This document shows positions 4,117 through 63,827 of a stretch of DNA of 64,000 bases, one piece after another. The DNA is from Gammaproteobacteria bacterium (lineage in GTDB: Bacteria > Pseudomonadota > Gammaproteobacteria > JAURND01), in the NCBI GenBank assembly GCA_047601185.1, contig JASGJS010000001.1, positions 897,118-961,117 of the forward strand. Reading direction: 5' to 3'. Each line of letters begins with the position of its first letter. The stretch's first letter is position 1. Below the pieces are notes generated by a model, which was given only the letters and a program-made list of their open reading frames with translations, did not search any database and was not told the DNA's origin. Position numbers and translations under genes: made by a program.

Positions 4117-4249
4117 AGCGGGCTAGCAGCCCGCGCTCCCAGAATCTAGCCACTTTTTGGATTTGAGTCTTCTTCATCTTAAAGTCTTTCTCATCTTTAG
4201 CTATCATTTGAATGAAGCTCGAGTCTGGGAGCGCGGGCAGCTTGCCCGC
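4117..4249. repeat. Family F1 MITE-like element (TIRs 4117-4142 and 4225-4249)
   Basis: Left TIR 'AGCGGGCTAGCAGCCCGCGCTCCCAG' and right TIR 'CTGGGAGCGCGGGCAGCTTGCCCGC' are inverted copies. The stop codon of the downstream convergent gene is 2 bp away. Confidence 0.8.
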
Positions 4250-4250
4250 A

Positions 4251-5219
4251 TTAAATCTTTACCTCATTGGTTACAATAACCTTCAAAGCCTTTCGTTCCT
4301 CTGCTTTTTTAAAAGCCTCTAACCCCTGCGCTAAAGGATAGTGCGCTTGAACTAAAGGAGACACCTGAATCAATTTATCCGCCAGCAATTGTAAAGCCGG
4401 TTTAAAGGGGCCGCATCTTGAGCCAATGAGTTGAATTTCATTGACGACAATTTGTGCCGCATCGATGGTCAATGGTGCAGCGTATGTACTTTTTAAAACA
4501 ATGCGGCCGCGGGGTTTGACGCTACGCAATGCCAATTGAGCCCCTTCAGGATTACCGGTGCATTCCACGACAACATCAAAATACGCGGATCGAGCGGATG
4601 CCGCGTTAAATAGTTCGCCCGCAATACCCCACGTTGATAATAAATCAATTTTTTCCGGATTGCGGTCCATCACCAGCAATTCACAGCCGCGCAATTTTAA
4701 TGTTTGAGCAATTAATAATCCGAGCTTGCCAGCGCCCAGGACTAAAATTTTATCGTTAGGCTTGATGGATAATTGTTGTTGAATTTCTAAAGCGGCTGCT
4801 AGGGGCTCAGTAAAAATCGCTTCGTCATTGGAAACGGTGTCAGGCACACAGTGTAAATTTTCAGGGGGTAATACTAAATATTCGGCGAAGGCGCCGTGAT
4901 GATTAACGATGCCTAATACGGTGCGATTGGGACAATGGTTATGACAATGGCGTTGACACCATTCACATTGCCCACAGCCGACGTTGATTTCCCCCACCAC
5001 TCTTTTGTGTAACAGATGAGCGGGCCCTTGTTCCACAATCCCCACAAACTCATGACCTAAAATCCCTTGATAAGGATAATAGCCTTTGACCAATTCTAAA
5101 TCGGTATTGCAGATGCCGGCGTGTAAGACTTTGACTAAAGCTTCTCCTGAACTAGGTTTAGGAATGGCTAAGTCATGGCGTAAACTTAATGTTTGGTTCT
5201 CTAACCAGATCCCTTGCAT
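4251..5219 (-). CDS. Zn-dependent alcohol dehydrogenase (MDR superfamily)
   Basis: 'GICNTDLELVKG', 'GHEFVGIV' and a structural-zinc Cys cluster 'CGQCEWCQRHCHNHC' are present, with a Rossmann 'LVLGAGKLG'. The start is set at Met 5219, which has an upstream 'GGAG'. The ORF extends further to 5252. Confidence 0.8.
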   Translation of the reverse strand: MQGIWLENQTLSLRHDLAIPKPSSGEALVKVLHAGICNTDLELVKGYYPYQGILGHEFVGIVEQGPAHLLHKRVVGEINVGCGQCEWCQRHCHNHCPNRTVLGIVNHHGAFAEYLVLPPENLHCVPDTVSNDEAIFTEPLAAALEIQQQLSIKPNDKILVLGAGKLGLLIAQTLKLRGCELLVMDRNPEKIDLLSTWGIAGELFNAASARSAYFDVVVECTGNPEGAQLALRSVKPRGRIVLKSTYAAPLTIDAAQIVVNEIQLIGSRCGPFKPALQLLADKLIQVSPLVQAHYPLAQGLEAFKKAEERKALKVIVTNEVKI

Positions 5220-5239
5220 GTTAACTCCTGAATAAGAAA

Positions 5240-5563
5240 TTATTGAGCACACGCCTCACGCATCAATTTTTTGAACAAGTCGAATTCGATAGAGCAATCT
5301 GGTTGAATATGCGCAGTATAAGTCACCTGCTGGCAAACATTGTCTTTGGTGACTTGGATCGTATAAGTGTAAGGAGATTGTGAAGTGGTGTTAAGTTTGA
5401 GTTGTGTGATCTGATCACTCGAAGCAAAATCTTTTTCAGCTTGTTTGAGAACAGCAGAGGCAGTTTCAACCGAAGCTGCTATAGGCGTCATTTTGCAGGC
5501 GAAAGCGATATTCGGTAGGTTTAATGTGAAAAAGATTAAAAAAGTCGTCAACATTTTATGCAT
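5240..5563 (-). CDS. hypothetical secreted protein (signal peptide, 4 Cys)
   Basis: 107 aa. N-terminus 'MHKMLTTFLIFFTLNLPNIAFA' resembles a signal peptide. No recognisable family. Confidence 0.4.
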   Translation of the reverse strand: MHKMLTTFLIFFTLNLPNIAFACKMTPIAASVETASAVLKQAEKDFASSDQITQLKLNTTSQSPYTYTIQVTKDNVCQQVTYTAHIQPDCSIEFDLFKKLMREACAQ

Positions 5564-5567
5564 AGGT

Positions 5568-6203
5568 TTAACCCATCAAAGTTTGAATATCATGGCTAAT
5601 CTTATTCGCATCATGCGGTAAGGTAAAGACCCCGGCAAATTGTCCTTGTGGATTCACGATTAAAATCGTGCCACTGTGATCTATCGTATAATCGCCATCT
5701 GCCTGCGCGGATTTGACCTTCATATACAACACACTAAAACTTTCTGTTAATTGAGACAGGGTTTGTGCTGAACCCGTTGCCCCCAAAAAAGCAGGGTTAA
5801 AGCTATGCACATAATCGCGAATGCGCGCTAAGCTGTCAGACTCAGGATCCACCGAAATAAACACCATTTGTGGCACAACCGTTTGATGCGCTGCCGCTAA
5901 ATTTTTGTACGCCTGTTTTAAAACCGCTAGAGTCGTTGGGCATAATTCTGGACAACGGGTAAAGCCAAAAAACAGCAAACTCCAATGTCCCTTTAAATTA
6001 TTCAAAGTCAAGGGTTGGTTATTGCTGTCAATGAGTTGAAAATCTGGAACACGACGCGGTTGCGGAAAAATCGTCGCACTTTCAAAAGAAGGTTTGGATG
6101 AAAGGTGGGTATTGTGATGCGTCCACACGCCCCATCCGATCGCTAATAAAGCGACCGCAATCAATAGAAAAATAATCTGTTTCGTTTTTAAAGCAGCTGC
6201 CAT
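5568..6203 (-). CDS. SCO1/SenC-family copper chaperone (thioredoxin fold, 'CPELC' motif)
   Basis: N-terminal TM segment, 'FGFTRCPELCPTTL' CxxxC motif and a conserved downstream His. It lies beside ctaB/ctaA. Confidence 0.75.
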   Translation of the reverse strand: MAAALKTKQIIFLLIAVALLAIGWGVWTHHNTHLSSKPSFESATIFPQPRRVPDFQLIDSNNQPLTLNNLKGHWSLLFFGFTRCPELCPTTLAVLKQAYKNLAAAHQTVVPQMVFISVDPESDSLARIRDYVHSFNPAFLGATGSAQTLSQLTESFSVLYMKVKSAQADGDYTIDHSGTILIVNPQGQFAGVFTLPHDANKISHDIQTLMG

Positions 6204-61972: not shown

Positions 61973-62110
61973 GCTTATGTACTCTTTTAGATTTGAAGGG
62001 CTAATACTAATCAGTTTTATTTTTTTTGTCTATATGGTAAATATAAATACCTGAGGTATTATTTCCATGAGATCCCGCTATCAAGTAGGCGGGACGTCGA
62101 GGTATAAAGT

Positions 62111-62722
62111 ATGTACGAGCTACAAGCGCTCAATTTAGAATACATCCGAAACGACCAACTACTCTTCACTCAGTTAAATTTTACGTTAGCGCCTGGTAAT
62201 TTGCTGCATATCGTGGGTCAAAATGGCAGTGGGAAATCGACCTTATTAAATATTTTATTGGGTTTTCTGATACCGACGGAAGGGGAAATGCGTTGGCAGA
62301 ATCACCCAATTTCCACGCAGCTGCACCATTACCAAGCGCAACTCGCTTATGTTGGACATAAGCTGGGTGTCAAAAGTGGATTAACCGTAGCAGAAAATGT
62401 GCGATTACAGGCGATGTTATCGGGTGTTGATTCGCTAAATTGGGATGAAATATTGTCTTATTTTTCGCTGGAATCACTCGAAAACCGTTTTTGCGAGCAT
62501 TTATCGGCAGGACAACAGCAGCGGGTAGCTTTAACCCGGCTGTTAATCCAGTCTGCGCCGATTTGGATATTAGATGAGCCTTTTAGCGCTTTAGATGAAT
62601 ACCACCGGCAAAAATTGCAAGCACTGATTGCCTTGCATGTGCAGCGAAAGGGTATGGTTATATTAACCAGTCACCAGCCCTTAGTATGGACTAGTCTTCA
62701 ACCTATGATGTTGCAGCTTTAA
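62111..62722 (+). CDS. ccmA: cytochrome c biogenesis heme exporter ATP-binding protein
   Basis: Walker A 'GQNGSGKST', 'LSAGQQQRVAL' and 'LDEP'. 203 aa. Confidence 0.88.
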   Translation: MYELQALNLEYIRNDQLLFTQLNFTLAPGNLLHIVGQNGSGKSTLLNILLGFLIPTEGEMRWQNHPISTQLHHYQAQLAYVGHKLGVKSGLTVAENVRLQAMLSGVDSLNWDEILSYFSLESLENRFCEHLSAGQQQRVALTRLLIQSAPIWILDEPFSALDEYHRQKLQALIALHVQRKGMVILTSHQPLVWTSLQPMMLQL

Positions 62723-63387
62723 TGAAACCGTATTACTTTTTAATTCGACAAGACTTGCGCCTGGCCTTACGTTTTAAAGCCGACTGGATCAACAGCTGGT
62801 TATTTTATATCTTGGTGGTGAGTTTATTCCCTTTAGTGCTGCCGGTTGATCCCTCATTACTGCACAAAATCGGCCCCGGCCTGATCTGGATCGCGGCAGT
62901 ATTGTCCATCCTGTTAAGTATGAATGGATTTTTACGACCCGATTTTAGAGAGGGGAGTTTAGCACAATTGGTGTTAAGCCCTTTGTCATTGACAGGCTTG
63001 ATGCTCGCTAAGATGCTGGCGCAATGGTTGATCAGCTTCATTCCGTTACTTTGTATTACGCCAGTGCTGGCATTTTCATTACAGCTGTCAGGCCAGGAAA
63101 CGTTAATTTTATTGTGTACTTTAGCTTTAGGGACACCGACTTTAAGCTTTTTGAGTGCTGTGGCTGCGGCGTTAACGGTCAATATCCGCAATCATACCAG
63201 TTTGCTGAGCTTAATGATTTTGCCTTTAGGGGTGCCGGTGCTGATTTTTGCGACGGGGGCGGTGATGGATGTGGCAGCGGGTGTATCCAGCAAAGGCGCT
63301 TTAGCCTGGTTGGGGGCGTTATTGGCCATCACATTGAGCCTAACCCCGTTTGCAGTCAGCGCCAGTGTGCGATGGTTACACGATTAA
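62722..63387 (+). CDS. ccmB: heme exporter permease
   Basis: 221 aa with six TM helices. The start overlaps the ccmA stop codon. Confidence 0.88.
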   Translation: MKPYYFLIRQDLRLALRFKADWINSWLFYILVVSLFPLVLPVDPSLLHKIGPGLIWIAAVLSILLSMNGFLRPDFREGSLAQLVLSPLSLTGLMLAKMLAQWLISFIPLLCITPVLAFSLQLSGQETLILLCTLALGTPTLSFLSAVAAALTVNIRNHTSLLSLMILPLGVPVLIFATGAVMDVAAGVSSKGALAWLGALLAITLSLTPFAVSASVRWLHD

Positions 63388-63588
63388 ACGGCCGGCGTTG
63401 GAAGTGTTATTCAAAGCCAATGTTAAAGTTTGGTAGCCTAAGGCGATGTAGACCACTTTTTCGACCATGGGTACGGCTTGAAACATATAACCCACTAAAT
63501 TGACATGAAATATGCCGATGAGCCCATAATTGAACGCGGCTAAAATACTCGAAAATACAATCACTCTGCTGAAAAGTCCCAATTTCAT
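63376..63588 (-). CDS. DUF378-family small membrane protein
   Basis: 'LAAFNYGLIGIFHVNLVGYMF..VVYIALGY' matches DUF378. It is antisense-oriented between ccmB and ccmC. Confidence 0.45.
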   Translation of the reverse strand: MKLGLFSRVIVFSSILAAFNYGLIGIFHVNLVGYMFQAVPMVEKVVYIALGYQTLTLALNNTSNAGRLIV

Positions 63589-63661
63589 AACCTTCTCCTA
63601 TTTTTATACCTTAAGTGTAGCTTTGGGGGGTCTATTATGCAAATTGCTATTTTGAGTTTTT

Positions 63662-63827
63662 AGCGGGCAAGCTGCCCGCGCTCCCAGGCTCGAGCTTCAT
63701 TCAAGTGAAAGCTATCATCAAGCATCGAGATTCTTTCGCTCATCTCAAAGCATAGAAAGCAGAAAACCCTCTTTTGGCTGTTACCATGAAGGGCGCAAGA
63801 CTTGGGAGCGCGGGCAGCTTGCCCGCT
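63662..63827. repeat. Family F1 MITE-like element between ccmB and ccmC
   Basis: TIRs at 63662-63687 and 63803-63827. Confidence 0.85.

Follow-up and report, generated by a model that had tools for sequence, protein, structure and literature searches.

The stretch of DNA described here, a window of 64,000 nucleotides (64 kb) on contig JASGJS010000001.1 of an assembly from an uncultured gammaproteobacterium (GCA_047601185.1), carries housekeeping genes and, in the narrow spaces between them, a dense family of short repeats which is referred to below as F1. The AtpA protein encoded in the window is identical to a protein from a 1,712,400-bp contig labelled 'MAG: Gammaproteobacteria bacterium' (MAG, metagenome-assembled genome), and its next-best homologues are 87% identical; the host is therefore not Coxiella burnetii. 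Among 30 open reading frames (ORFs) of the window scanned with Pfam there are only housekeeping genes, several large orphan ORFs and one that codes for an ankyrin-repeat protein, and none was found to encode a transposase, a recombinase or an HUH enzyme. Searches with Rfam, at its gathering thresholds, and with ARAGORN gave no match in the window. The genes are closely packed, the intergenic gaps without an interruption being tiny, mostly between -4 and +60 bp. F1 is present at a density of approximately one copy per 5 kb, and if this density holds genome-wide the family would make up about 3% of the 1.7-Mb genome.

[quoted passage not shown] The principal finding reported here is that the F1 'TIR' is not specific to the family. 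It is a cosmopolitan unit, consisting of a hairpin and an adjacent tag, which is found letter-for-letter identical in MAGs of Gammaproteobacteria, Chloroflexota and Acidobacteriota. An apparently lineage-specific MITE is thereby reclassified as a doublet of a cosmopolitan unit. Furthermore, the unit is the conserved and selected part of F1, its hairpin being maintained by compensatory change and its tag by sequence.

Architecture and placement of F1

Termini were located with the pattern AGCGGGCWAGCWGCCCGCGCTCCCA (AGCGGGC-W-AGC-W-GCCCGC-GCTCCCA), allowing at most one mismatch, and the null distribution was obtained from 100 dinucleotide-preserving shuffles of the window. The window contains 23 matches and the 100 shuffles contain none, which bears out the earlier description of a terminus with a 7-bp stem that recurs in inverted form at the other end of the element. 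Pairing the 23 termini yields 11 two-ended elements and one solo end, at 44640, and thus the twelve copies, one of them partial at this position, that had been claimed (Table 1). Each unit comprises a GC hairpin, with a stem of 7 bp and a loop of 3 nt, and after it a conserved 8-nt tag, GCTCCCAG, giving a total of 25-26 nt, and is conveniently recognised by the sequence handle GCGGGC-N5-GCCCGC-GCTCCCAG. In F1 two copies of the unit are inverted and face each other head-to-head, with a linker of about 115 nt between them.

The copies are small (below about 500 bp), non-coding and dispersed, and have perfect inverted termini of 25 nt. Two-ended copies range in size from 134 to 375 bp; eight are 160-171 bp long and the others measure 134, 312 and 375 bp. 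The size of 130-170 bp given in the earlier reading is close for most copies and fails for those at 53638 and 3179, while its second partial copy, at 3500, proves to be the right end of the complete fold-back variant that starts at 3179. Between copies the termini are 99.5% identical, whereas the interiors show a mean pairwise identity of 67% (range 51-77%), lower than the 75% or so first estimated.

Alignment in a common orientation resolves the interior into two distinct sub-terminal modules, A and B. Nine copies have A at one end and B, or a B-like module, at the other; both orientations occur, as had been noted, four copies reading A->B and five B->A. The copies at 3179 and 4117 carry A-like modules at both ends. 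The former has a predicted RNA fold of -234 kcal/mol and a self-complementarity of 82% across its interior (3278-3475). A repeat search detected the reiterated stretch inside the copy at 53638, which Tandem Repeats Finder (TRF) missed. This copy and the one at 52570 are approximately 90% similar and inverted to each other, bracket a DsbA/ScsC-like gene and have the outer flanks AAAAGC and GCTTTT in common; the pair (52570-53949) looks like a composite or a local duplication. Throughout F1 the hairpin loop is AGC at left ends and GCT at right ends, and the termini are therefore true inverted repeats. On the same grounds an alternative view of the terminal hairpin, as a palindromic target that had been duplicated, was rejected.

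Table 1. Coordinates of F1 copies, of two further repeat families in the window (F2 and F3) and of loci elsewhere that carry a MITE with the unit doublet at its centre
Feature	Coordinates or loci	Strand	Description	Adjoining genes
F1 long fold-back variant	3179..3553	.	375 bp; standard termini, A-like modules at both ends, ~200-nt internal palindrome	
F1 short copy	4117..4250	.	134 bp; A-like modules at both ends	Between convergent HAD-hydrolase and alcohol-dehydrogenase genes; right end gap 0 to stop, left end 14 nt
F1 canonical copy	10616..10781	+	166 bp; A->B	dUTPase stop codon 12 nt away
F1 canonical copy	24204..24363	-	160 bp; B->A on + strand	5 nt past CDP-alcohol phosphatidyltransferase stop, 81 nt upstream of atpI
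F1 copy, diverged B module	30466..30631	-	166 bp; one mismatch in one terminus	81 nt upstream of dxs start
Solo F1 end	44640..44740	-	Terminus and B module; breaks off where F2 copy 44744-44824 begins	
F1 canonical copy	46634..46804	-	171 bp; B->A	9 nt past stop of ORF 45314-46624; next start 103 nt on
F1 canonical copy	49571..49737	+	167 bp; A->B	Between convergent ankyrin-repeat and amidohydrolase genes, each stop 9 nt away
F1 canonical copy	52570..52736	+	167 bp; A->B; outer flanks AAAAGC (left) and GCTTTT (right)	21 nt past a stop codon
F1 long copy	53638..53949	-	312 bp; B->A, A module reiterated	Between convergent DsbA-like and sucD genes; stops 24 and 20 nt away
F1 canonical copy	57101..57270	-	170 bp; B->A	Between convergent Bcp/AhpC-like gene and 1291-aa ORF; right end 4 nt from stop of the latter
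F1 canonical copy	63662..63827	+	166 bp; A->B	Close to window end
F2 copies	1427-1625, 14728-14789, 15612-15673, 26514-26609, 30972-31066, 31194-31272, 35639-35831, 39899-39997, 44744-44824, 56117-56211			
F3 copies	405-502, 18957-19018, 25162-25259, 39747-39836			
~180-bp MITE loci, HOU_bin.0176	L003, L008-L030			
~180-bp MITE loci, Methylococcaceae MAG	L004-L006, L015, L019, L021			

Distances to stop codons were taken from our own ORF calls, and 21 F1 ends were scored. Since the intergenic gaps are so small, placement was tested against random insertion into intergenic space from which F1 had been removed. A stop codon is found no more than 25 nt away from thirteen or fourteen of the 21 ends, against an expectation of 1.4-1.9 (P<1e-4), an enrichment of about 8-fold. 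Eight ends are at most 10 nt from a stop or are overlapped by the 3' end of an ORF, where 0.7-0.9 are expected (P<=1e-4); the enrichment claimed earlier thus stands, although its count of at least nine ends within 10 bp was slightly generous. The earlier observation that copies often lie between convergent genes also holds, this being the case for four or five copies against 1.3-2.2 expected (P = 0.03-0.05). In tandem gene pairs, three of four copies (24204, 46634 and 52570) adjoin the upstream stop and lie 64-103 nt before the next start; the fourth, at 3179, overlaps the end of the upstream ORF and on its far side stops 9 nt short of a tentative TTG start (3563). The preference of F1 for gene 3' ends is real, and either targeting or selection is compatible with the data from the window.

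At two genes the overlap extends into the coding sequence. Nucleotides 3177-3227 supply the last 16 codons of an rsmJ-like S-adenosylmethionine (SAM) methyltransferase ORF (2367-3227), which ends 49 nt inside the element; in the Pfam scan its SAM_MT domain ends at residue 271 of 286. Nucleotides 57101-57133 likewise supply the last 11 codons of the Bcp/AhpC-like ORF 56669-57133, which ends 33 nt inside the element. This rewriting of C-terminal tails by F1 is of consequence for genome annotation, and peptides translated from the unit could seed spurious or extended ORF annotations wherever the unit occurs.

No target-site duplication was detected at F1: the longest direct match between the two flanks of a copy is 3 nt, and the distribution of such matches is that of a mismatched-pair null. 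Of the 11 copies, 5 have inverted flanks of at least 3 nt (p = 0.011, the null frequency being 13.6%). The copy at 10616 has perfect inverted flanks of 17 nt, …GTGATTTTTTATTTTT on the left and AAAAATAAAAAATCAC… on the right, with TGA on both sides; the right-hand triplet is the dUTPase stop and the left-hand one is the stop of a doubtful 77-aa ORF (10370-10603).

The unit in other genomes and the selection upon it

Unit-bearing loci were labelled L001-L154 and amount to 1.3 Mb in total. Among the MAG matches listed, the exact 25-mer occurs in Gammaproteobacteria, Methylococcaceae, Blastocatellia (two MAGs), Ardenticatenaceae and Chloroflexaceae, and an uncultured gammaproteobacterium, HOU_bin.0176, has many copies of it. 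More than 120 JGI metagenome contigs, with a GC content of 0.38-0.71, likewise contain the exact unit. The usual arrangement elsewhere is the reverse of that in F1, namely a tail-to-tail doublet in which CTGGGAGC-hairpin is followed, after a spacer of 9-80 nt, by hairpin-GCTCCCAG. In Blastocatellia this doublet stands alone between genes. In other genomes it lies at the centre of unrelated MITEs with TIRs of their own (GGCATCTTTCAT… in HOU_bin.0176 and Methylococcaceae, GTAACTGTTCA… in Chloroflexaceae and GGTAAGTGTTCACATGTCTCC… in high-GC contigs), and at L037 it is nested three deep. A MITE of about 180 bp with TIRs GGCATCTTTCATTTTCC…GGCAATATGAAAGACGTC and the doublet at its centre is present in many copies in HOU_bin.0176 and Methylococcaceae MAGs (Table 1). 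The loci sampled from these two MAGs have no gene in common with the window.

Other arrangements are also seen. Units form arrays with a period of 39-44 nt at L078 (4047-4236), L086 (2371-2516) and L094 (6273-6452), where two or three units are followed by one or two inverted ones; these arrays lie immediately upstream of the gene for the large subunit of exonuclease VII (xseA) in related high-GC contigs. At L149 a tmRNA gene (11-365, 152 bits) is directly followed by a cluster of three units (488-630). The tail-to-tail doublets at L059 (951-1023) and L050 (2343-2399) have lineage-specific inverted flanks of up to about 30 nt, in parallel with the 17-nt inverted flanks of the F1 copy at 10616. 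These flanks suggest insertion at the symmetry centre of a palindrome, or a mechanism which creates an inverted flank duplication.

One head-to-head pair like that of F1, with a 47-nt spacer, was found at L125. The F1-specific junction between terminus and A module, GCCCGCGCTCCCAGRCTCGAG, had no matches in the JGI metagenomes, and a full F1 copy had none in plasmid or phage collections; judged by these sequence collections, the arrangement seen in F1 thus seems confined to the present lineage. The bare terminal unit, without the A module, had no matches in viral contigs.

The pattern of variation within the unit identifies what is being conserved. In the window the hairpin is closed by A·T at 9 termini and by T·A at the other 14, a complementary pair throughout, and it is perfect in 22 of the 22 paired termini. 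In 6 of the 11 copies, however, the left and right termini differ in their closing-pair variant. This implies selection on the local hairpin and not on a duplex formed between the two termini. A larger sample was provided by 113 distinct doublets from the other genomes, evaluated against 500 shuffles. Here the local hairpins are 94.7% paired, compared with 83-89% for pairing from arm to arm. Double-change cells amount to 63 in one local hairpin and 43 in the other, where the shuffles reached no more than 39 and 24, respectively. Four of the seven stem positions show compensatory changes. Read locally, the closing pair is of the Watson-Crick type in 90-94% of cases, a share that falls to only 29-31% when it is read arm-to-arm. 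The 8-nt tag (CTGGGAGC/GCTCCCAG) is conserved as a sequence and shows no covariation among these doublets. As single-stranded DNA each hairpin has a computed stability of about -9 kcal/mol. A G·C-type hairpin is joined with an A·T-type hairpin in 73 of the 113 doublets.

F1 among dispersed palindromic repeats

The HUH/Y1 transposases (IS200/IS605, RAYT) have as their substrate a hairpin, recognised as a structure, together with an adjacent tag, recognised as sequence. By analogy, the hairpin-plus-tag logic of the unit would point to an enzyme of this type. We put the chances at about even that F1 is a non-autonomous, REPIN- or BIME-like doublet of a unit akin to the repetitive extragenic palindromic (REP) sequences (BIME, bacterial interspersed mosaic element). 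F1 is a dispersed extragenic palindromic repeat, which is a known kind of element, built from an unusual unit that is apparently undescribed.

Described REPs are hairpins tagged with GTAG or CGTC which lie mostly downstream of coding regions and sometimes supply stop codons or sit inside ORFs; they form head-to-head and tail-to-tail dimers as well as clusters, are without target-site duplications, and are associated with tyrosine transposases of the RAYT or TIRYT type (Di Nocera et al. 2013, PMC3733652). The present repeats share with REP, BIME and REPIN elements a short GC-rich hairpin with a conserved tag beside it, occurrence as singles, as inverted doublets with conserved linkers and as clusters, and an extragenic position just downstream of genes or between convergent genes, with some overlap of ORF ends and no target-site duplication. 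They differ in their tag, which is 8 nt long, conserved as sequence and neither GTAG nor CGTC, in the length of the head-to-head linker of F1, and in having no RAYT beside any unit examined. The BIMEs of E. coli are heterotypic pairs of Y and Z REPs; the unit doublets of other genomes are, similarly, usually heterotypic in their closing pair.

A second parallel is offered by the TIRtron/TIRYT repeats, dispersed inverted repeats, sometimes double-palindromic, which occur as monomers, dimers and groups, are linked to RAYT-like tyrosine transposases, in Acidobacteria among others, and have the common motif GGGGWSAS (PMC3733652). The likeness lies in the organisation of the repeats and in the presence of the F1 unit in Acidobacteriota. 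The published motif is different, however, and no TIRYT gene is linked to the unit in the loci examined. The unit sequence is absent from the text and supplements of Di Nocera et al. 2013 that were examined (PMC3733652), and unit sequence strings matched no relevant paper in the literature corpus searched.

If F1 is a REP-like doublet, its copies would spread as whole doublets and in trans, through cut-and-paste or copying that recognises the hairpins in single strands, and the linker would be copied along with its two units. Mobilisation would fall to an HUH/Y1 transposase, of the RAYT/TIRYT or IS200 kind, whose gene would lie outside the window in the same genome, and insertion would favour AT-rich or palindromic sites just 3' of genes. 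Effects on RNA, such as those of the stable 25-bp stem between the two termini and of occasional terminator-like ends, would be a by-product and not the raison d'être of F1.

Several points weigh against this reading. The tag GCTCCCAG is not one of the two, GTAG and CGTC, that define the described REP classes. Typical REP/RAYT pairs are species-specific, whereas the unit is exactly identical across phyla. The mobility of F1 has itself not been observed, no empty orthologous site being available. Nor was a mobilising enzyme found: the window encodes no transposase or HUH protein, and among the 150 ORFs that lie closest to the unit elsewhere a bulk Pfam scan revealed no enriched family, the most recurrent being Uma2 (four members) and IS4/5 DDE (two members). 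No IS200-like Y1 protein was detected among 8,210 ORF segments from the 1.3 Mb of unit-bearing loci, although the probe was a single IS200 TnpA sequence and the search therefore of limited sensitivity, such that distant RAYTs could be missed. Finally, the covariation counts ignore the relatedness of copies, and arm-to-arm conversion in palindromic repeats can mimic selection.

The genes bracketed by pairs of units are ordinary ones (MatE, HSP90, sigma-70, MoeA and similar). Two kinds of candidate enzyme were considered and rejected. The ORFs sandwiched by F1 in the window are not RAYTs, the 179-aa ORF being a HAD hydrolase and the 270-aa ORF DsbA-like, and an IS5-type DDE transposase lying between units elsewhere has unrelated 22-nt TIRs of its own.

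A broader proposal is more tentative. The 25-nt unit may be an undescribed pan-bacterial REP-like module, whose identity between phyla would reflect either horizontal spread or a very widely conserved factor. It would be mobilised by an enzyme yet to be connected with it, it would land repeatedly at the symmetry centres of palindromes, including those of other MITEs, and its pairs would usually be heterotypic, with one GC-type and one AT-type hairpin. F1 would then be the head-to-head form, which has colonised gene 3' ends in a reduced and probably host-associated gammaproteobacterium. The identical 25-mer in Gammaproteobacteria, Chloroflexota and Acidobacteriota raises a question in its own right, and the unit provides a handle with which one may ask by what enzyme or host factor REP-like repeats are propagated beyond the classical GTAG/RAYT systems.

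It is possible, if somewhat improbable, that F1 is instead a classical MITE, that is, a deletion derivative of an insertion sequence (IS) which is mobilised in trans by a DDE transposase binding the 25-nt TIRs as double-stranded DNA. Such an origin would fit non-coding elements of 134-171 bp that are dispersed in many copies and have perfect 25-nt inverted termini and homologous interiors, and the termini are far more conserved than the interiors, as transposase binding sites would be. Elsewhere, furthermore, the unit sits inside standard-looking MITEs with their own TIRs. Nearly all DDE transposases, however, make a target-site duplication of fixed length, which F1 lacks, its flanks being inverted and not direct. 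The closing-pair variants keep the hairpin within each terminus while breaking left-right identity in 6 of 11 copies, which would be unexpected of TIRs read as duplex, and one and the same unit serves whether arranged head-to-head, tail-to-tail or in tandem. Neither the window nor the unit-bearing loci yielded a cognate IS, and the lone DDE transposase between units in the latter has unrelated TIRs. As a description, the label 'MITE-like' is acceptable.

Alternatively, F1 might owe its retention mainly to some function for the host at the 3' ends of genes, as a bidirectional terminator or attenuator or as a hairpin for mRNA stabilisation or RNase III processing, in which case terminal conservation would be the result of host selection. 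We regard this as unlikely, despite the strong enrichment within 25 nt of stops and between convergent genes and the invariance of termini whose interiors drift. The transcripts are predicted to be very stable: that of the copy at 49571 has a minimum free energy of -70 kcal/mol (z = -5.8), and the other strand one of -68 kcal/mol (z = -4.7). Effects of a full-length F1 transcript on RNA are therefore possible. The use of F1 ends as transcription terminators, as put forward in the sequence-only reading, is not supported. Of the 14 termini scanned between 44001 and 64000, a 20-kb part rich in copies, only four have a T-tract after the hairpin, all of them on the copies at 52570 and 53638. The four termini of these copies, which bracket the DsbA-like gene, score as bidirectional terminators by way of their AAAAGC/GCTTTT flanks. 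When the scan and the flanks are taken together, 9 of 11 copies are without a T-tract and have tails that are A-rich or mixed; in these, outward-facing hairpins are followed by A-rich or mixed sequence and inward-facing hairpins by GCTCCCAG. With a T-tract on only 2 of 11 copies, the F1 terminus is therefore not a generic intrinsic terminator. Whether a copy reads A->B or B->A is, moreover, unrelated to the side from which transcription enters. The C-termini of two genes are truncated or replaced by F1 copies, another copy lies upstream of dxs, and relatives whose AtpA is 87% identical lack the F1 unit in their syntenic atp region. That one identical unit is found in very different contexts and phyla, and inside other mobile elements, fits a selfish repeat better than a local regulatory site.

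A comparison may be drawn here with SPRITE, a terminator-like repeat of S. pneumoniae (reviewed in PMC10969869). Both are small dispersed repeats with a GC hairpin at gene 3' ends; unlike repeats of the SPRITE type, F1 hairpins are generally without a downstream U-tract. Hairpin repeats at gene ends should accordingly not be named 'terminators' before a U-tract has been checked for.

The earlier suggestion of a resemblance to the QMITE families of Coxiella is likewise not supported. QMITE2 is 150-190 bp long, has a structured transcript, lies in 3' untranslated regions (UTRs) or intergenic positions with few-bp overlaps of ORF ends, has direct repeats of 7-11 nt and contains a GTAG REP, which is a target of IS1111; QMITE1 is 300-400 bp long with direct repeats of 2-4 bp and is reportedly unique to C. 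burnetii (Wachter et al. 2018, PMC5896051). Eight F1 copies of 160-171 bp overlap the size range of QMITE2 and resemble it in their position close to stops, mostly 3' UTR in QMITE2 and there too overlapping ORF ends by a few bp, in their REP-like palindrome and highly structured predicted transcript, and in reaching a high copy number in the small genome of a host-associated (for F1, probably host-associated) gammaproteobacterium, while the 375-bp fold-back copy is like QMITE1 in size and fold stability. Membership of either family is nonetheless highly improbable, given a host other than C. burnetii, to which QMITE1 is reported to be unique, and the absence from F1 of the 7-11 nt and 2-4 nt direct repeats and of a conserved GTAG in the termini or consensus; by description F1 is set apart from the QMITEs, and two other families in the window, F2 and F3, look more GTAG-REP-like than F1 does.

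A permissive Rfam search returned only chance matches to microRNA hairpins and a weak match to the Chloroflexi-1 motif (RF01698). The latter concerns doublets at L041 and L002, which score 22-26 bits against a gathering threshold of 80, and the F1 copies of the window gave no match to this model. The likeness is that of a multi-copy non-coding hairpin, and the tail-to-tail doublets share with the motif the stem segment GCGGGCAGC…GCUGCCCGC.

Other repeats and orphan genes in the window

A second abundant family, F2, has the hairpin CCTTCTCCC-N5-GGGAGAAGG together with CGATAGG…GGATGAGGGG. It is present in about ten copies, in both orientations, which often adjoin F1 or one another. F2 may correspond to the palindrome type described by Wachter et al. 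as resembling QMITE2 in alphaproteobacteria. The third family, F3, is about 98 nt long, with copies 87% alike, and has a GTAG-tagged palindrome, CCTGTAGGC/GCCTACAGG. It is nearer in type to the classical GTAG REPs than F1 is.

Large ORFs without a Pfam domain, of up to 1291 aa, lie at 12756-14342, 43649-44578, 45314-46624, 46908-47621, 50902-52548 and 57275-61150, and the ankyrin-repeat protein is encoded at 48197-49561. Together with the small size of the genome (1.7 Mb), these orphan ORFs and the ankyrin-repeat protein suggest a host-associated, effector-rich lifestyle.

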